This document shows, one piece after another, positions 14,011 to 43,279 of a stretch of DNA of 64,000 bases (positions are counted from its first letter, which is position 1; each line of letters begins with the position of its first letter). This DNA comes from Elsinoe ampelina. Lineage: Eukaryota. The stretch is from assembly GCA_010093995.1 (NCBI GenBank), contig ML992516.1, positions 185,413 to 249,412 of the forward strand. The letters run 5' to 3'. The translations under genes and the position numbers were made by a program. The notes beneath the pieces are model-generated. The model did not search any database, was not told the DNA's origin, and worked only from the letters and a program-made list of their open reading frames with translations.

Positions 14011-14818
14011 GGTTTCGTCAAGGACAGAGGGAATGGGGTGCTAGAGAGTGAAGCAACCGCATCAGCGGTGAGGGATAGGAATGCCAGAGATGTGAGAGAA
14101 AGATGCAAGAGGAAAAGAAACAAGACTTGCACCAGGGATAATATCCACTCCCGTTGAAAGACATTAAGCCTTTTCCCCAGGTAGGCGATAACAGACCAAG
14201 GCTACGCTGCAGGGCGGCGGTTTGAAAGGAGAGCCAACAGTCGACCAACAGTGAATTTCCAGTGTAGCCTTTACTTCGTAGGGACTTTGGGCCCCGCACG
14301 TTCTTCTAGCCGCTCCCAAAGGCACTGAAAGGCTACGCCGCTTTGGTCGCCGAGACCCACAAAACCGAGATGAAACAGAGGTGCGAGGCACTTGTCCCTC
14401 TTGTGAATGGTGCGGCAGTGACCGACGCCATCGCCTTGCTCGACTGGAGTTTCTGGACGTGGTTGGAATCGACGCCCGTCGTTTGATCTTCGTCCACTGC
14501 TCCAGTCGAGATATGTAACAGCACGCCATCCAACACCTGTAAGCGACATGGGAGTCTGCGACGGTTGGCGACTCGAGCAGGCATGTTGCGAGATACCGGA
14601 CGTTTTGCGTTGCATATGAATATCCGAAAAGGACAGCATGTAGAGCCGAGATCCAAGGATAAAATATTCGTCGAGGACCAACATCCGAAGAACCATGTCG
14701 CGTGTCGATCGTTCGGTCAATAATATGCAGATGGAAAGCACTGCCGAAAGTGACGGTCTTGCTGGAAACAATCCTGGTGGTAGGACAGGTTGTACCATAC
14801 CAACTGTCAGTAGGGAAA

Positions 14819-15225
14819 CCTAGTAGTGTCCTGAAAGAAAGTACTACCAGAATGCTCATGCAGGATCATGGAGCAACAATGTTATAGTTTTTGAACCTGA
14901 TAGTCTGATAGCGCAATACTACCAGAATGTTGAGGCGACTTCACAGGAATAGCATAATTACGGTCAAGTCGGGCATTGTCATGTCAGGTACTACTACCAG
15001 AAAGCCAGGGCAAATTCCACATGAATAGCACAGTCATCCTTAGACCTAGTGGTATATCTCTAGAAAGAACTACCAGAATGCCAAGCCATAAACAACACCA
15101 TGAGATTGGCATTGAGCCTGGTAGGATCAGATCAGAAGGTACTAACAGGACCAGGAGAGCTTCACGCAATATGACAGAATCGTCCGAGTAACTGGTGGTA
15201 GATTGCACCAAGAACTACCAGCTAT
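14819..15225 (+). repeat. Periodic motif array B: CCTRGTRGT-N13-15-ACTACCAGAATG at ~75-bp spacing
   Basis: Core at 14843, 14918, 14993, 15069, 15141 (ACTAACAGG), 15214; gaps 75, 75, 76, 72, 73. Degenerate inverted partner 22-24 nt upstream at 14819, 14896, 15045, 15117, 15191. Confidence 0.8.
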
Positions 15226-15426
15226 ACTACACATGCCCCTCACACCATGGAGAGGCGGAAGCCGCACACATGCCTCTCCTTCCCAACAGGCACTGCAGGT
15301 GCCACTGCGGCACGCGGCGCATTGCTTCCCCCTTTCACTCCTTGATTAGCCCTCCCATCCGCTCCTCCACCCCCTCCTCCATTCTCTACACCTTCCTCTC
15401 GCCTTTCCCTCGCCTACATCTCGCCC

Positions 15427-15446
15427 NNNNNNNNNNNNNNNNNNNN
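15427..15446. other. Assembly gap (20 N)
   Basis: Run of N inside a C-rich tract. Confidence 0.99.
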
Positions 15447-16007
15447 CCATCTTTCTCTCCCCCTTCTATCCTCCCTTCCCCGCCACCACGGGCACCGCCA
15501 TCAAACCCTCCAGCATCCTCGCCGTCCCCTCCCCCTTTTCCTTTCCCCTCTACCCCTCCGCTTGCCCCTTCACTTCCTCCCTCGCTACTGCTCGAATACC
15601 AACCACTCTCCGCCCCCACAACCCCAGCCGTAATGCAGGTACGGCGTCGAGGGAACGTCACCTTCTGGTAGGTATGACTGGAATGGAGGGTGAGGGAGGG
15701 CGTAGATCTTCCTAGGGAAAGGAGGGGGAGGTTCCGTGGCCGTGGTGGCCAGTGGCGTATGGTGCTGCTGGTAGGAGTGGCGGGTAGATGAGATGCAGCG
15801 GCCTTGGATGAGCTGAGAGTGAGGTGAGCCTGCGCTGATTCCAGGACATGGCAGACCAGCAGCGGTCCTGTGGACTTGGTCCCTTGCTGGAGGCTCTGCT
15901 TCTTTAATCTCGTTTCCCTCACGTGTGCTGGCAGACAATAGCTAGCTAGGAGAAAGTGCAATTTGCCATTGTGGGATCACATGTCAGAATGTCCATTGAT
16001 CTGCCAG

Positions 16008-16901
16008 TCAACGTGGCTCCGTCCGAATTCCGATTTCTGGCCCATCCAGAGTGTCCCCAATCTCGACCAATGTCTTGTCATATACCTTTGCGACGTCCAT
16101 ATCCCAGCCCTCATCGTTTGTATGTCCAGCATCGTCGACATCATCAAGCACCAGGTCACCTTCCAGATCCTCTTCGGCCTCATCTTCTTCCTCTTCGTCC
16201 TCAACATCGCCAGCAGCCATGACATTCGCCACGGATATCCTGGTTCTTTCTATCAAGCTCTTGATGCGCACTTTCTCCGTCGTGCTCACCTTGCGACCAG
16301 TCGAGAAGCCTGGAAGCGGCTCCCCAGTATCCACATCTCGACCTTGGAGTAAGGAGGCGAACGCATGGTCGAGCTTACCGATCGAACGAAAAAGCTGTTT
16401 TGGGGAAGCAGGAAAAGCAGGTATTATTGTGTTGACCAGGAGGGCGATTGAGATAAGGTAGGGGATCTGAAGTGAGGCTAAGAGGAGTCAGCGGCTATGT
16501 ATACACAGTATGGACAACGACGTACGAGTACCGCTTATCCAAACGATTCCCAGCAGTTCTTCCACATCACGCGACGCTTCTCCAAAAGTGGTATAACCAG
16601 GAACATCTTGCCATTGCTGCGATTTGTCAAGCTTGATGCTTGCAATGCCAGGATCTATTGATCGACCTTGCTCATCCGTCTCCGGGACTCCGGCATCAAG
16701 TTTTGTATCACGCTTTGCGAAACGTCTTTGGATGTACAAGATTTGTTGATCTACAAACCTGATGAAGCTCGACTCTTTTGACCCACCAGGTTTTAGAGGC
16801 GATGATCGGGGCTCCGGTAGAGCGTTGAATTGTCTCGAAGATGCTACAGACGACGGTGGGGGCGAATAGGGCAGAAAACCGCCAGCTTCATTCATTGACA
16901 T
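16008..16901 (-). CDS. TFIIH subunit Tfb6-like protein
   Basis: LPEPRSSPLKPGGSKESSFIRFVD...RRFAKR. Intron 16478-16525 gives WISGTPSLQIPYL. Also KLDHAFASLLQGRD, VSTTEKVRIKSLIERTR, acidic tail and VYDKTLVEIG. Confidence 0.7.
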
Positions 16902-17258
16902 GAGAGAATTGATCAACGAGCCGTGTCAAAAAGCTTTTGGAAGCTATGGTGTGTTTGAAAAAGCGAGCTTGACGGAGATGCCCCCGCAAATGGCGGTCCA
17001 TCGCCCTGACGCCAAGTACACGGCAGTGCGGATAGTCATGGACGGCCCTCATACTTCAACCTCATATCCGCCCAGCAATCGTTGTTCTACAGAGCTCAGA
17101 GTAGTCTCTTTCGAGATCATATTCTCAAAGATCGCAAGGAAGGTCCAACCCAGCAAGAGCACGCAGTAGAAGAAGATCCCAGGGCAAGCTCCACTTGCTC
17201 ATTGTAAGGTCTCTCAAAAAAGACTATATATTTTATTGACGTCTCCCGCAATCAAAAT

Positions 17259-17387
17259 GGCAACGTGGCGGAGTGGTTAACGCGCGGGCCTGCTAAGATA
17301 TGTATCACAATTCTTCACAACGAATCTGCGCTGACTCTCCTTCACCCCGTTCCTTCGGGAGCGAGTGTTCGAATCACTCCGTTGTCG
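17259..17387 (+). tRNA. tRNA-Ser (anticodon GCT at 17292-17294) with a 48-nt intron
   Basis: Acceptor stem GGCAACG/CGTTGTC plus G73; A-box TGGCGGAGTGG; long variable arm TTCC-TTCG-GGAG; T arm GAGTG-TTCGAAT-CACTC. Intron is 17296-17343 (37/38 model) or 17298-17345 (AT-AC model). Confidence 0.93.
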
Positions 17388-17398
17388 ACCGAGAAATC

Positions 17399-17405
17399 TT
17401 TTTTT
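17399..17405 (+). terminator. RNA polymerase III terminator (T7)
   Basis: Run of 7 T starting 12 nt after the tRNA 3' end. Confidence 0.75.
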
Positions 17406-17800
17406 CATCATGGGTGGCCGTTGTCGTTGTAGTGAGGTCCAAATGGGCATCTCGGGCTTTTTGCTTTTGGGCCCCAAATAAGAGCAGTGCATTGTGAGCA
17501 CACCTCTTTTTATGAAAAGGGGCTTGAGCTTGGAGGAACGATCACTCCAGCATCCTATCAAAATTCATCACCGGTCTGCTGTAACCTGCTTCACACCTGC
17601 GAATCGTCGGAATCTCAAGATGCCATCAGCACGATAAACACACCGGATCAGTGTCTTGGATGTCTTGACATCTACTACATTGTGTCTGGCTCCAGAGGAG
17701 TGTCGACGCATGGGCTTGACAGCTTACCGATTACAACCCTAGCGAGATCTTCAGACTTTGAGTGCAGCTTCTTCCTGATCAAGATCCAGCGTTGGTTGAC

Positions 17801-20428
17801 ATGGCTCGAAGACCATCTGGTCAATCGCGAATAGCAGACAGCGCTTCAGAGGTACAAGCAAACATCGAACAAGCTACCGTCCGCTTCCACGGTTCGAGTC
17901 TTACCAGTCCAATCGGTGAGCAGATACACAAGTTATGCAGTCTCCCAATTGTACGCGAAGCTGTTGTACGAGACCTGGGCACTTTTAGGCTCAACCACGC
18001 CCGAAGGGTTTTAGCGAGTGTAGCTCAACGTCGCACTGAGCTGTCGGAAACACCTTGCGAACGATGTCGCAATGAGGAAGGGGCTTTCGTTGAGTGTGCA
18101 AAAATTCATGCTGCGGCCAAGACATGTGCGTCCTGCTACTATCTGGCAGTCGCATGCAGCAACGATAGCAGTACGTTCATGCATCTCAGAGGATTAAACC
18201 CAGCTTCTGACCTGAGCACAGGAAAGAGATTTGCTCGCAGCTGCGCTGAAAGGCCAAATGATGGACGAACAGATCCATGCAAGAGAAGAGCTGACAGTAA
18301 TGAACACAGGGTGAAGTCGCCGAGTGGCCGGCAGTCCGCCACATTCAAGGCACCAATTTCATATGCTGGTGTGCACTTGAAAGGACCTGGCATCCGCGGG
18401 GACTTCAAAATCATGGGTGAGCTATTCCTACCCGACCCACATCTAGCAGGTCTCTCGGACCTGCACCTGAAAGTCATACAAAAGATACTGCCGGGTCTGC
18501 GAGCTTTGGAGTCTCGTCCGCACGGTTGTGAGTCTCAAATGACAACCCCAACGGGCACCGACTGATGAACACAGGCCTGCGTAAGACTGTCCACGACATC
18601 TACTCCAGTTTCACCGACTTTCGGACCAGTGAAGAAGCAACATGGAAGGTTCTCGAGGGTCAAACCTCTCGGCTTTCGAAGGAGCCATATCTTGTCTGTC
18701 CTTCTGGACCACTCGAATCGCGCTTGATCCATCGGCTGCACCAGCCGTCCATGCATTGCGCCGATCCCTGTTTCGCCGAAACCGCCGACGCCTCAAATGG
18801 ATGTATAGCCATGGTGATGGGCAATGCCTATTGCCGGGAGTCTACGATGATTATCGATAATCTGCATCGGCGCCACATGCAGTCAGAAGGATACCGGGAC
18901 TACCCTGCTGAAATCACCGCGATGCATGAAAGATTCACTCAGAGCATCATGGACTCGTCGGAAGCTAAAGTAGAAGTGGTCTATGGTAAAAAGGTTCAAG
19001 CAAGGCTACGTGACATCCGGTGTGATGTGCTCCCTCTTTGGGGCTGTTATCAAGGTGTAACACTTCTGCTCGTTCACGAGTCTAATTACGGAAACGCCTT
19101 GGAAGATTATGCGTACCGTCGTATCATGCTTTTCGCCACTCATCCTCAAAGGCTTTTCTACGAGCCCCGAGGAAGTCCCGTGGCGGACATGCAGGCCAAG
19201 ATTCTATCAGCTACTGCCTGTATGGCTGGCAGTATTCCTCTAAGGGAGGGCTATTTTGAGGATAAACTTTGGATCAACGACATGCCAGGGGTGATCCAAA
19301 ATATCGCCCGTGCAGCTTTTGCTGACTGCAAGGTTGGACATGAGCGCTCGGGCGACATTAGAGCCCGTGATAGTTGAGGATATGGAGGAAGTTGTAGAGG
19401 ACGATGAAGGGGATTCAATATGGTACAGTAGACCACATAGCAATGCGGTCCTACGGAATCTCGTCTGTCCTGCTTTGAGCGCTTTGGACCGGCACCCTAG
19501 CGATATCGACGACTGGTCCGCTGTTCCAACCGAAACATTCGAATGGCTCAAGGGTCAACGGGAGATAGCATTTTACAATTCTACAGTGCGAGACATTCCC
19601 GACTTGGTGAAGTCGCTCAATGTCATATTTGGGACGCGGCTCTGTGCTGAGGGCAAGGCACCATTCCAGTCTCCGAAGCTGGCTCTACGACAGCTCTTAC
19701 GATGGCAACAAAGTGACCTGGAAGCGATCGCAAGGGTGGCTCACGAAGACTACTGGCATAGCCGTTTCGACGACTGTGAGTTGCTCATATGTTGCGAGAA
19801 ATGTGGCGCGCTGTTGCCGTCGGAGAAGCATTACAGATGGATGGTCAATATGCCGGGCCACCTCGCTCTGAGCAGGGAGAAGCATTGTTCTTCCGACATG
19901 TGTCAAGGAAGGAGCTCTCTATCCGTGCCTGTGGACAGCAATGTGAGATACATTAGAATCAAGGACGCTACCACATGGCTACGCACGGAAACACAGCAAG
20001 ACTTTGACGTACGGCCCTTTCAACTTTCAACAACAAGCATACTCAAGATGTCTTTACCCTCATTGGTGCGATATTGGTGCATCAAATGTCGTGAGGACAC
20101 GGAGACCGCCACTGGTGCCCGATATTGGGTAGACGAAAATCCGAGATGGACCCTCGGGTTGCAGAAACCTCTATACATCGAACGAAAACCAAGATGTCTC
20201 AATTGCGTTCGAAATGGGATTACTTTGGGAAGAAGCGTGCCGATTGATGGAAGCATTGGCTCGATCTATGCATCACAATATAAAATATACCTCGCGCCCT
20301 TTATGGATTTGGACACACGCACACTTGCCATTCTGGCGGACAGTATCCCACCATCCGTACGGTTTCCGCGGATGATGAATAGCAAGCGCAAGGAGAACTC
20401 GTCAAACAAATTCAGAACCAAGGCTTGA
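17801..20428 (+). CDS. Mosaic protein: DUF3716-like Cys cluster + uracil-DNA-glycosylase-like fold + two zinc ribbons; frame break near 19310-19377
   Basis: ORF 17762-18565 (CERC...GAFVEC...CASC...CS) has an in-frame intron 18171-18221. Intron 18528-18574 (GTGAGT...ACTGAT...CAG) joins it in frame to ORF 18565-19377. ORF 19310-20428 (+1 frame) has CEKC/CSSDMC and CIKC/CLNC. Start codon uncertain. Confidence 0.55.
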
Positions 20429-20864
20429 GCAGAAATCTTACAATCTCGAATGTCTAGCGGCGGATCTGCCGCACCCATGTATCTCATGTTGTAGACATCC
20501 CTCAATATCATAGAGCGCATGCACTTCGATACCTTTGACGCCGGCTTTGATTAGAGCAAAGCCGCTTCATTACAGAAGTTCCCGAAATGTCTGCTTTTGC
20601 TGACGGTCTGTGCGCGTTCACATGTCAACTGTTCTCCGCAATCTGGTTCCAAAGTTCCCAGGCCGAGGGTTCTCCAAGGGGCAGCCTCTTGCGGCCTTCT
20701 CACACTTCATACATCAAGCACCTGCCCCATCCGAGCCTGCTGCTGCCAGACATCATCCTCGCCCATTTCGCACGCGGTCAGCACGCTTGCTATACAAGCC
20801 CTCTCTGAACTTACCCGAAGCTCTTGCCAGTTTTCCGCAAGCCCACCGAATTGGTACCAGAACA

Positions 20865-39351: not shown

Positions 39352-41285
39352 ATGCAATTGGCCCCAAGAGAAGTGCGCGATGGCTCAATGCTTAACCCTG
39401 CACCTCCCCGCTGACCAATACCAAACAGCTCGACAAACTCGTCATATCCCAGCTCGGCCTGCTCGCCCAACGCCGTCTCGCCCGCGGCGTCAAGCTCAAC
39501 CATGCAGAAGCACTCGTTCGCCCCTCCCTCCCCTGCTCCCACCGCCCACTAACCCCCGCAGGCTCTCATCGCCAACAACCTCCACGAAGTCCGTCCCTTC
39601 TCCCCCGTCGCCTCCCTTTCCCTCCCCTCTCCCTTCCTCCCCTGCGTATCTGACCCCCTCCCCAGCTCATCCGCGATGGCACCCACTCGGTCGCCACCCT
39701 CATGTCGCTCGGCCGCACCATGCTCGGCCGATCCCACGTGCTCCCCAGCGTCGTCGCCTCGCTCACCGAGCTCCAAGTCGAAGGCACCTTCACCACCGGC
39801 ACCTACCTCGTGACCGTACACAACCCCATCGCCACTGACCACGGCGACCTCAGCCGTGCGCTGTACGGTAGTTTCCTGCCCATCCCGGACGCGGGGCTGT
39901 TCACCCTCCCGGATGCGGAGGCGTATGAGCCCCAACGGCAGCCCGGGGCGGTGGTCGTGGTCAAGGGGAAGGAGGGGAGGGTGGTGCTTAATGAGGGGAG
40001 GAGGAGGGTGAGGTTGAGGGTGGTGAGTAAGGGGGATAGACCGGTGCAGGTGGGGTCGCATTATCATTTTGTGGAAGTCAATCCGCAATTGGAGTTTGAT
40101 CGGGTGAGGGCGAGGGGGTATAGGTTGGATATTCCCGCGGGGACGTCGGTGAGGTTTGAGCCGGGGGATGCGAAGACGGTGACGTTGGTGGAGATTGCGG
40201 GGAGCCAGGTGGTGAGGGGCGGGAATGGGTTAGGGAATGGGAGGTTGGGGGAGGCGTTTGATGAGGAGGCTTTCATGGGGAGATTGAGGGATGGCGGTTT
40301 TGGGCATGTCCCTGAGCCTGCAGGCGATGGGGGGAAGATTGATTGGTTTTCGATGGAGAGGGAGGCGTATGTGAGTATGTTTGGGCCGACGACAGGGGAT
40401 CTGGTGAGGCTTGGGGCGACGGAATTGTGGATCAAGGTTGAAAAGGACTTTGCGAGGTATGGAGATGAGTGTACATTTGGTGGTGGCAAGACTGTGAGAG
40501 ATGGGATGGGCCAAGCAAGTGGGAGGGCAGATAAGGATTCTCTGGACACGGTGATCACGAACGCACTTGTGGTGGACTATACCGGGATCGTCAAGGGAGA
40601 TATTGGTATCAAGGATGGTCTTATTGTGGGCATCGGCAAGGCAGGCAACCCGGATGTGATGGAAGGAGTTCATCCAGACTTGGTCGTGGGATCCATGACT
40701 GACGTGGTGGCTGGCGAGGGTAGCATTGTCACTTACGGAGGATTTGACAGCCACATTCACTTCATCTGTCCACAACAAGCCAACGAAGCTATCGCATCCG
40801 GCATCACTACCTTCCTTGGAGGTGGTACAGGACCGACCACAGGTACCAACGCCACGACTTGCACAGCCAGCACCGACATCATCAAGAAGATGCTTCAAGC
40901 CATTGATCATCTCCCTCTCAACATTGGCATCACAGGCAAAGGTAACGACAGCGACACCGGTCCACTCCACGAGCAAGTCGCCGCCGGCGTCTGCGGTCTC
41001 AAGCTACACGAAGATTGGGGCACCACCCCATCCGCCATCGACAGCTGCCTCACCGTCTGCGACGCCGAAGATGTCCAATGCCTCATCCACACCGACACCC
41101 TGAACGAATCCGGCTTCGTCGAAACCACCGTCGCCGCATTCAGGAACCGCACCATCCACACCTACCACACCGAAGGCGCCGGAGGAGGCCACGCACCCGA
41201 CATCATCTCGGTCGTCGAACACGCCAACGTCCTCCCATCCTCCACCAACCCCACCCGTCCCTACACCCGCAACACCCTCGACGAA

Positions 41286-41317
<32 letters not shown>

Positions 41318-42100
41318 GTCGCGCAACATCCCCGAAGACGTCGCCTTTGCCGAATCGCGCATCCGCGCCGAGACCATCGCAGCCGAAGACGTCCTCCACG
41401 ACCTCGGCGCCATCAGCATGATGTCCTCGGACAGCCAGGCCATGGGCCGCTGCGGCGAGGTGATCCTGCGCACCTGGCACACGGCGCACAAGAATAAAGT
41501 CCAGCGGGGGTTCTTGCCGGAAGACGAGGGTACAGGCGCGGATAATTACCGTGTCAAGCGGTACGTGAGCAAGTACACCATCAACCCGGCAATCGCGCAA
41601 GGGATGAGCCACCTGATTGGCAGCGTGGAGAAAGGCAAGCTCGCGGATCTCGTGGTGTGGAAGCCGGCGGACTTTGGGACCAAGCCAAAGCTGGTCATCA
41701 AGGGTGGGATGGTGGCGTGGGCGCAGATGGGGGATCCGAATGCGTCGATCCCGACAGTGGAGCCGGTGGTTATGAGGCCGATGTTTGGGGCTATGGTGCC
41801 GAGTACGGGGATTACGTTTGTGTCGAGGAGGGCGAAGGAGGAGGGGGTTGGGGAGAGGTATGGGTTGAGGAAGAGGGTGGAGGCGGTCAAGGGGTGTAGG
41901 ACGGTGGGGAAGGCAGATATGAAGTTTAATGATAAAAGACCGAAGATGAAGGTGGATGCGGAGAGTTATGTGAGTATTCGTGGTGAGAAGGGAAAGGGGG
42001 ATTTGCTAACGAGTGATAGACTGTGCATGCTGATGGGATGCTTTGTGAGGCGGAGCCAGCGACGAGCTTGCCGCTGGCTCAGCAGTACTTTGTGTACTAG
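39352..42100 (+). CDS. URE1: Urease (fused gamma-beta-alpha type)
   Basis: [69 protein letters not shown]. Introns 39373-39428, 39516-39561, 39589-39665, 41970-42019. Confidence 0.98.
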
Positions 42101-43279
42101 CGAAAAGGAAATAGGAGAGAGATATGGTCACCTACCTGATTTGCGAGATCTTGTCGGCCATACAGCTGTGATGGCAAAGCTGGGGGAAGCAGAAGTGAGA
42201 TCATGCGAGCATGTAGTGCTATTTGCAAGAATATTCATGCAATCCGTCCATGTTCCGCTTGCTCCGTGGCCAAGCTTGTGAGGCTGTCAATGTGCTGTCA
42301 TGCTGCAGTCAATCGAGGTTCGTGATGTTGACAAAACATTGTTGAAGCCTTAGTGGACCGCACCCCATGGGGACGGGGGACGACCCACCGATCTGTAATA
42401 GCGGAGCGAGGTAGGGCTCGAAAAGGTTGTGAACATGCATGATGGTGTCGCCTGTATGTTCGTGGCCACAAGCTCATATCGGTGTATTACCCAGAAAGGA
42501 TTCGCTACTGCACACTTGCACAATGGAGGGAACGACAACGAGTATTCCCCTGCCGGAAAAGACCATGACTAACATCGCGTTCAGTAGGTACTTGTGCATC
42601 TTGCACTATACATCGCGACTGTTCGATCGTCGTTCCAAATCGCGTGCGTGCCGTTGTCTTCTGCCACTGTTCACGCAGCGGTTGTGCATCGGCTATCAGT
42701 AATGAATAACCTCGGTCAAGTGCCGTTCATGAGTAGCGGTTGTGGGATGCTTTGTAATGCAAGGCACCTCAGAGGGAACCACAAGTGCCGATCTTGTACC
42801 CCACCATCACCGGGTCGAGACCATAATCAAGGTCTGGGCGCTCATCATTCGTTCAGTAAACACTGTGGCTTTTTCGATCTTGCGGTAGGTGAAGACGGTA
42901 TGTTCTTGGGCTTTCTGTATGTTGTGAATAGAGGCCTTTCGATGTTGCTGTCTCATTCAGTGCGTTGTAAGATGCCAATACAAACGGTCAGATCTGAGCG
43001 GGGAGAGCAGTAAGACCAACGGTGAAGGAGCTCCAAAGCTCGCGCAGGGGACATCATCTGGCGGGGCAGAGGGGGCTGCATGGACCAGTGAGGGGCTCCC
43101 ACATTGTCCCGGAACTCACTCCAAAATGCGTGGCAACCAAGAGCTAGCCTGACCCTGCGCTGGATTGACCGCTGGTACAAAGATCACCTGCCGTCCTGTT
43201 TCTTTGCCGGAGTCCATCTTTTCCCCGTGTACCCCTACTCCCACCCACCATATACCAATCGCAAACACGAGAACCCAAA

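Follow-up and report, generated by a model that had tools for sequence, protein, structure and literature searches.

The window, by which we mean the whole 64-kb stretch of DNA analysed, contains a single tRNA gene, a tRNA-Ser(GCU) at 17259-17387 (+). The Rfam model RF00005 matched the same interval on the same strand with 40.4 bits, above its gathering score of 29; its alignment left a 52-nt insert unaligned in the anticodon loop and flagged one non-standard pair in the anticodon stem. At default settings ARAGORN called no tRNA in the window, which is an effect of the settings, as the gene was found in intron mode as tRNA-Ser(gct) with an intron of 48 nt at position 38. Once the intron is removed, the 81-nt tRNA-Ser(gct) of ARAGORN and the Rfam alignment give a cloverleaf with a GCT anticodon, a long variable arm and a discriminator G. 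The surroundings of the gene have a fungal look, with RNA-proven introns of 47-51 nt and a single-chain urease gene of 859 aa elsewhere in the window, the nearest protein-atlas clusters of which are in Basidiomycota and Ascomycota.

The 5′ exon (tRNA nt 1-39; 17259-17297, +), as placed by Rfam, ARAGORN and the homologue alignment, reads from the acceptor 5′ strand GGCAACG and TG at positions 8-9 through the D arm GCGG AGTGGTTA ACGC and G at position 26 to the anticodon stem 5′ strand CGGGC and the loop CTGCTAA, and is ended by G39 when the intron is placed at 39/40. The boundaries fixed by homologues put a 48-nt intron with the termini AT..AC at tRNA position 39/40 (17298-17345, +), so that it interrupts the anticodon stem in its 3′ strand. 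Its sequence is ATATGT...GCTGAC and then TCTCCTTCAC: the 5′ splice site ATATGT (17298-17303, +) follows the exon end AAG, the branch-site motif CTGAC (17331-17335, +) contains the putative branch A17334, after which 11 nt of the intron remain, and the pyrimidine-rich tract TCTCCTT leads to the 3′ end CAC (17336-17345, +). The 3′ exon (tRNA nt 40-73; 17346-17387, +) comprises CCCG, the variable arm TTCCTTCGGGAGC, the T arm GAGTG TTCGAAT CACTC, the acceptor 3′ strand CGTTGTC and the discriminator G.

Elements that resemble Pol III signals accompany the gene. A TATA-like element lies about 30 nt upstream of tRNA position 1 (17225-17235, +; matches at -34 and -32), and TGGCGGAGTGG (17266-17276, +) and GTTCGAATC in the T arm (17367-17375, +) are what we take, from their consensus, to be A-box-like and B-box-like internal promoter elements. 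A run of seven T, similar to a Pol III terminator, is located 11 nt past the tRNA 3′ end (17399-17405, +). Among the matches listed in the homologue search described below, a TATA-like match within 60 nt upstream was present in 18/62 GC-rich homologous loci, and four or more consecutive T no further than 40 nt downstream in 65/69. The latter include two loci of special interest here, L009 and L018, in which the TATA-like matches are at -48/-46 and -43, respectively. The TATA-like element may have a role in Pol III start-site choice.

Intron boundaries and homologous tRNA-Ser(GCU) genes

An earlier note on this DNA, made from the sequence alone, had described two models for the intron. In the canonical one, a 37/38 cut (intron 17296-17343) leaves A38 and CCCCG at positions 39-43 opposite CGGGC at 27-31, so that the C31:C39 mismatch described in the note does arise; the intron thus defined indeed has no AGC and has T as its third-last base, as the note had said. 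In the other, a 39/40 cut (intron 17298-17345) gives CGGGC-CTGCTAA-GCCCG, a perfect 5-bp anticodon stem, and the intron signals that the note had pointed out, namely ATATGT, GCTGAC, the pyrimidine tract and CAC, are all present. ARAGORN called an 81-nt tRNA-Ser(gct) for both spliced forms, and thus a tRNA finder cannot choose between 37/38 and 39/40. A GT..AG intron within the insert was ruled out: AG is absent from 17298 to 17359, which leaves no GT..AG pair capable of restoring the tRNA.

We searched a metagenome collection with the D-arm/anticodon pattern, placing no constraint on the stem, and obtained at least 119 loci. This set is mixed, with many AT-rich loci, and the scan pattern also had matches in the genome contig collection, all of them in eight archaeal MAG contigs; the AT-rich loci are therefore probably archaeal or otherwise non-fungal, and for this reason counts are also given for a fungal-like subset, defined by a variable arm with at most three mismatches to that of the window gene (56 loci, and three more with an interrupted variable arm, among the matches listed). 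Positions 31 and 39 form a Watson-Crick pair in all 118 evaluable loci among the matches listed (114 C-G, three A-T and one G-C; one locus is cut off and falls outside this number), including 56/56 of the subset. The ten listed loci with the 5′ strand CGGGC all have G39 (nine GCCCG, one GCTCG), and none of them has a 37/38 intron. Three intronless loci (L022, L043 and L113) equal the window exons from position 8 through the end of the T arm. Against these, the window insert lies exactly after G39 with zero substitutions required, and 17298-17345 are the sole boundaries that reproduce the homologues' CTGCTAAG|CCCG, as sliding either way alters the product. Alignment to intronless homologues thus demands the boundaries that the note had proposed for its 39/40 model.

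The acceptor stem of the window gene (GGCAACG/CGTTGTC) differs from that of the homologues (GGCACTT/AGGTGTC) in three pairs, all of them compensated, which points to a tRNA kept under selection. The window intron was absent from all of the loci among the matches listed (at least 119), and the exact window-type junction had 0 matches in the genome contig collection. A BLAST comparison of the intron with the window and every listed locus revealed no second copy, and hence there is no sign of an introner-like repeat.

Canonical 37/38 introns are present in 21 loci of the gene family among the matches listed. They are 17-26 nt long, contain AGC, the complement of the anticodon, in 21/21 cases, and have G at -3 opposite C32 in 17/21. 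The window insert of 48 nt, without AGC and with T at -3, can form neither canonical pairing, and placing it at 37/38 leaves C31:C39 instead of an intact anticodon stem. We also applied a gapless geometric test for a bulge-helix-bulge, which gave at most 6/11 pairs with 1/4 in the central helix for three boundary choices in the window and found no such structure at any of the four L009/L018 introns, but this strict test is also failed by the canonical fungal introns of the family and is a poor discriminator.

A U12-type intron was considered and rejected. The U12 consensus consists of the 5′ site ATATCC and the branch site TCCTTAAC 10-15 nt from the 3′ end. By this consensus the window intron does not qualify, since its 5′ site is ATATGT, which the note had already said is not the U12 donor, and its only TCCTT-like stretch, TCCTTCAC, lies right at the 3′ terminus.

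Splicing signals and RNA over the gene

Contigs of four runs covering 14500-20500 contained three joints, two of GT..AG on the plus strand and one of CT..AC, which represents a minus-strand intron; the GT..AG-joined contigs indicate that the four runs are in fact RNA. The mRNA introns verified in this way are 48 nt (16478-16525, -; GTACGT, GCTGAC, TAG), 51 nt (18171-18221, +; GTACGT, TCTGAC, CAG) and 47 nt (18528-18574, +; GTGAGT, ACTGAT, CAG), with 10, 11 and 9 nt after the branch A, respectively. The tRNA intron (17298-17345, +) has 48 nt, ATATGT, GCTGAC, 11 nt after the branch A and CAC. Its length thus falls into the range of the mRNA introns verified by RNA (47-51 nt, n=3), its CTRAY motif is at a comparably short distance from the 3′ end and is followed by pyrimidines, and AAG|ATATGT (17295-17303), with an exon ending in AG, fits the GTRNGT-type consensus except at position 1. 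The likeness in size and spacing to the mRNA introns of the window, noticed earlier from the sequence, therefore holds against RNA-verified introns. In the tRNA intron, A at +1 is combined with C at the last position, which is the combination of U2-dependent AT-AC introns. In yeast, the +1 and last intron positions rescue each other.

The pattern ATRHGT...CTRAY...YAC occurs five times in the window against 5.3 expected from shuffled sequence. As this is the shuffled rate, the weight of the evidence rests on the coincidence of the pattern with boundaries set independently by the tRNA alignment. The joint probability of the pattern at the alignment-fixed boundaries is ~4e-7, for which a factor of 10 to 100 is to be allowed for motif definitions picked post hoc; even after this factor the splice-signal coincidence is far below chance.

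Among the joints of the four RNA-type runs, taken from contigs in which short mature tRNAs are poorly captured and rare forms do not show, there was none across 17298-17345, and the mature tRNA was not represented by any listed contig either. The only RNA contig over the intron, from run X1, extends from 17273 into the downstream gene (17273-18170 and onward) and carries the tRNA intron unspliced, with the two downstream mRNA introns removed. The intron is without RNA cover in runs X2, X6 and X7. Low-depth RNA was found over 16922-17295, and the downstream contigs of X2 and X6 start at 17372, inside the tRNA. A second tRNA-Ser(GCU)-like sequence, which has G39 and the common GGCACTT as its acceptor strand, is also present in the RNA contigs of the organism. 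This RNA evidence is thin and points, if anything, away from splicing, yet it is compatible with it.

Interrupted tRNA-Ser(GCU) genes in metagenomes

Five loci among the matches listed (L009, L018, L042, L020 and L032) fit neither the intronless nor the canonical pattern; four of the five come from one metagenome, and their introns are known here from DNA alone. L009 and L018 share one layout. Exon 1, GGCACTTTGG, has 10 nt and ends with G10, and is followed by a putative D-arm intron of 53 or 54 nt (GTAAGC...CTAAT...CAG or GTAGGT...CTGAC...CAG), a middle exon of 37 nt that starts at C11 and takes in the first half of the variable arm, a putative variable-arm intron of 51 nt (GTAAGT...CTAAC or CTTAC...TAG or CAG) and a last exon of 34 nt to the discriminator, with a T run 8 nt beyond. 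ARAGORN called no tRNA in the unspliced sequence of either gene and an 81-nt tRNA-Ser(gct) in both of the two genes tested when both introns were removed. The variable-arm intron recurs in L042, the truncated 5′ end of which reads ...ACAG|C, as if a D-arm intron were present too. The exons of these three loci agree at 37/37 and 30-34/34 positions, the variable-arm introns share 39-40/51 positions with their signals retained, and the D-arm introns, as read by eye, cannot be aligned beyond their signals. Conserved exons and signals with a diverged intron are the pattern expected of introns that need splicing.

In L020, as read by eye from the listed sequence, the D-arm intron is two nt further on (GTAAGG...CTGAT...TAG), and the T stem has three C-to-T changes; this gene may be dead. 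L032 reads ...GCGAG|GTAAATA at the end of its contig and may have a T-stem intron. Together, the five metagenomic tRNA-Ser(GCU) genes thus seem to be interrupted by GT..AG introns that have branch sites and are located in the D arm, the variable arm and perhaps the T stem. According to excerpts of a 2023 review, the four-subunit eukaryotic TSEN removes only introns between nucleotides 37 and 38 (PMC10485636); under that limit it cannot serve positions such as those in L009 and L018. A small class of tRNA-Ser(GCU) genes with predicted spliceosomal-type introns at several positions is supported by these sequences.

Removal of the intron and comparison with known systems

The window intron is probably a U2-type AT-AC spliceosomal intron in a functional nuclear tRNA-Ser(GCU) gene, removed from a Pol III precursor by the spliceosome. 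The earlier note had suggested that this tRNA may be matured by the spliceosome, and the suggestion gains support from the boundaries set by homologues, the resemblance to mRNA introns, the contrast with canonical tRNA introns and the apparent GT..AG introns at other non-canonical positions in related tRNA-Ser(GCU) genes. We infer the polymerase, the action of the spliceosome on the transcript and the order of steps as follows. The gene would be transcribed, most likely by Pol III, as the upstream TATA-like element, the A- and B-box-like elements and the T7 terminator suggest. U1 and U2 would recognise AAG|AUAUGU, CUGAC with A17334 and the pyrimidine tract ending in CAC; the intron would leave as a lariat and G39 would be joined to C40. 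The product would be an 81-nt tRNA with the perfect CGGGC/GCCCG anticodon stem, and end processing and CCA addition would follow. The intron itself probably goes back to the insertion of a spliceosomal intron into the tRNA gene; one possible route, already suggested for U6, is reverse splicing with subsequent reverse transcription and recombination. Against a spliceosomal removal of the intron stand the minor place of the AT-AC class among splice sites in fungal annotations (PMC7072748, in excerpt), the normal action of the spliceosome on Pol II transcripts, with U6 as the main Pol III precedent in the excerpts of a review on its introns (PMC5855946), and the contig data, in which no spliced joint was seen and the X1 contig carries the intron unspliced.

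Part of the same evidence could be read differently. The intron may be of spliceosomal origin and located at 39/40 and yet have lost splicing, AT and AC having disabled a former GT..AG in a young pseudogene while another copy serves the cell. We regard this as unlikely, though worth keeping in mind: the sole RNA contig over the intron is unspliced, the RNA contigs of the organism contain a second tRNA-Ser(GCU)-like sequence (G39, GGCACTT), AT-AC introns are rare in fungi according to excerpts of PMC7072748, and L020 shows that decay is possible in such genes. However, the 81 exon nt are intact, as are the T7 run, the TATA-like element and the box-like elements, and the acceptor stem has its three compensated pairs; moreover, two random hits in a 129-nt gene would have to fall on the first and the last intron base and give A and C, for which our own estimate is ~1e-5. 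The transcript may instead be the Pol II leader of the highly expressed downstream gene, spliced co-transcriptionally, with the tRNA then released by RNase P and RNase Z. To this we give a slim chance. The X1 contig does run from 17273 through the downstream gene with both introns of that gene spliced, and low-depth RNA covers 16922-17295, but one contig over two genes does not prove a single transcript, Pol III is suggested by the box-like elements and by the T7 run just past the tRNA, and the X2 and X6 downstream contigs start at 17372, within the tRNA.

Removal by a nuclease is the remaining type of explanation. An ordinary TSEN intron at 37/38 (17296-17343), in which C31:C39 is tolerated and the look of splice signals is coincidental, is decidedly unlikely in our judgement, even though both ARAGORN in intron mode and Rfam put the insert at the canonical site, the eukaryotic TSEN takes its measure from the body of the tRNA and makes few demands on intron sequence (excerpts of PMC10485636), and the canonical fungal introns of the family likewise fail the strict bulge-helix-bulge test. 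It needs a G39-to-C change, which 0/118 homologues among the matches listed show, a G at intron position +2 by chance and the ~4e-7 coincidence of splice signals, together with an intron that exceeds the 21 canonical ones two- to threefold in length and is devoid of an anticodon complement and a C32 partner. Very improbable is a 39/40 intron cut by a protein endonuclease at a non-canonical site, or by another nuclease with a ligase, and no spliceosome. Non-canonical tRNA introns cut by endonuclease occur in archaea and some red algae (PMC10485636 and PMC4090602, in excerpt), but neither reading of the window intron nor any of the four L009/L018 introns has a bulge-helix-bulge, the fungal-type four-subunit TSEN is said to be limited to 37/38 (excerpts of PMC10485636), and the splice signals are left unexplained.

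The wider claim is that some fungi mature nuclear tRNAs by the spliceosome and that tRNA-Ser(GCU) has repeatedly gained mRNA-type introns, at 10/11, 12/13, 39/40, the variable arm and perhaps 53/54 and including the rare U2-type AT-AC, in genes that eukaryotic tRNA-finder settings miss or misannotate; we lean towards this claim, if only slightly. Eukaryotic-mode tRNA finders miss such genes, as with L009 and L018, or give a wrong mature sequence, with C39 for G39, and excerpts of the tRNAscan-SE 2.0 paper describe a search for non-canonical introns in archaea only (PMC8450103). Where fungal tRNA sets seem to have gaps or contain peculiar mismatches, further cases may be concealed. If spliceosomal removal is correct, translation of AGY serine codons would depend on splicing in such fungi, and the spliceosome would be shown to cope with a Pol III transcript that is highly structured and has very short exons (10 nt for the first exon in L009/L018). 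It would also provide a natural system for intron gain by reverse splicing and for U2-type AT-AC splicing.

In the excerpts of reviews, tRNA introns and spliceosomal introns are treated as unrelated classes removed by separate machines (PMC12530127, PMC10275265, PMC10485636); a 2025 paper among them describes the three eukaryotic intron types as completely unrelated and assigns the spliceosomal ones to Pol II transcripts (PMC12530127). The divide between TSEN introns and spliceosomal introns confined mainly to Pol II would fail if our reading is true, and the abundant, structured Pol III tRNAs would not only be open to intron gain but also serve as substrates of splicing. The non-mRNA hosts of spliceosomal introns listed in the excerpts of the U6 review are U6, U2, U5, U1 and rRNA genes, a list from which tRNA is absent (PMC5855946); tRNA would then join this short list. 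The note had remarked that such maturation was not known to its author to have been described, and in agreement with this a full-text literature search, with subscription journals largely outside its reach, found no paper on spliceosomal introns in tRNA genes.

The closest known system is the U6 snRNA intron of Schizosaccharomyces pombe (Tani and Ohshima 1989, 1991, reviewed in PMC5855946) and other fungi, which is likewise a spliceosomal intron in a short, abundant and structured Pol III ncRNA, has conserved splice sites and an unconserved interior, and has been proposed to originate by reverse splicing; in contrast to U6, the host here is a tRNA with a splicing pathway of its own and the termini are AT-AC instead of GT-AG (excerpts of PMC5855946). 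The spliceosomal introns of ascomycete rDNA (Bhattacharya et al. 2000, cited in PMC5855946) similarly interrupt a fungal gene for a stable RNA outside Pol II, but their host is a Pol I transcript and a different RNA. With TSEN/Trl1 introns the window intron shares a nuclear tRNA gene, a place near the anticodon loop and a canonical call by tRNA finders (excerpts of PMC10485636 and PMC10275265), whereas it differs in its position at 39/40 instead of 37/38, in having neither anticodon pairing nor a C32 partner, in its 48 nt versus 17-26 nt in the 21 canonical homologues and in its spliceosomal signals. U2-dependent (type II) AT-AC introns begin with A and end with C (PMC7072748), and the window intron resembles them in its 5′ site, ATATGT versus GTATGT, and its U2-type branch site; in the excerpts of PMC7072748 and PMC1557818 such introns are those of protein-coding genes, mainly of animals and plants, whereas the host here is a fungal tRNA gene. 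Archaeal and red-algal tRNA introns are also located away from 37/38, sometimes several in one gene, and are missed by eukaryotic settings (excerpts of PMC4090602 and PMC10485636), but in place of their bulge-helix-bulge the genes described here have GT..AG or AT..AC termini and branch sites.

A second tRNA-Ser(GCU)-like sequence among the RNA contigs

A second tRNA-Ser(GCU)-like sequence, designated locus Z, was found among the RNA contigs of the same organism as the window. Contigs from three of the RNA-type sequencing runs, X1, X2 (373 nt) and X7, carry this sequence and match the window at 17266-17297. In these contigs, locus Z has the common acceptor strand GGCACTT and G39 (CTGCTAAG|CCCGTTCCTTC), lacks an intron, and departs from the tRNA halfway along the variable arm. 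Beyond the tRNA part, the letters are codon-like (TTC AAG ATT GGC CAG GCC GAT). Locus Z could represent a tRNA gene that is truncated, or a coding exon to which the 5′ part of a tRNA is fused. As the X1 depth of 481 in the bin 17113-17313 far exceeds what the two listed window contigs account for, locus Z may be abundant.

The intergenic region and a possible start of the downstream mRNA

The window tRNA gene (17259-17387, plus strand) is located in a divergent intergenic region of ~450 nt, between a minus-strand gene extending to ~16920 and the downstream gene. The downstream-gene contigs of X2 (record 9) and X6 (record 13), two runs from different studies, both start exactly at 17372 without a loose end. 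This position falls within the T loop of the window tRNA, and it is possible that the 5′ end of the downstream mRNA lies inside the tRNA gene. The leader of the downstream gene contains a short upstream ORF (17411-17479; ATG at 17411, TAA stop near 17477), which is found directly 3′ of the tRNA terminator.

Metagenome loci and their overlap with archaeal tRNA-Ser

One metagenome locus (L032) ends with the seven bases GTAAATA, which follow straight after the 5′ strand of the T-stem and are the last before the contig end. The rest of this tRNA-Ser(GCU) gene is intronless and its anticodon stem is that of the window; judging from these letters, GTAAATA may mark a fifth intron position, 53/54. L032 comes from the same metagenome as three loci with GT..AG-type introns (L009, L018 and L042). 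Another tRNA-Ser(GCU) gene, L020, carries a GT..AG intron in the D-arm. Its T-stem 3′ strand reads TATAT instead of the expected CACAC, and the 3′ part of the intron is AT-rich. By sequence, these changes look like C-to-T decay, possibly resulting from repeat-induced point mutation.

The D-arm/anticodon pattern of the window's fungal tRNA-Ser(GCU) is letter-identical in tRNA-Ser genes of DPANN-type archaeal MAGs, and pattern scans for this tRNA-Ser(GCU) therefore give a mixed set. This overlap concerns the archaeal MAG contigs L120-L127 and the AT-rich members of the metagenome loci L001-L119.

An Rfam match within the urease gene

Rfam reported a 5_ureB_sRNA match (76.5 bits) at 40492-40788 on the minus strand. 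The match sits within the 859-aa urease ORF (39702-42281). It most likely represents conserved urease coding sequence rather than a small RNA gene, the Rfam family being built on sequence antisense to ureB.
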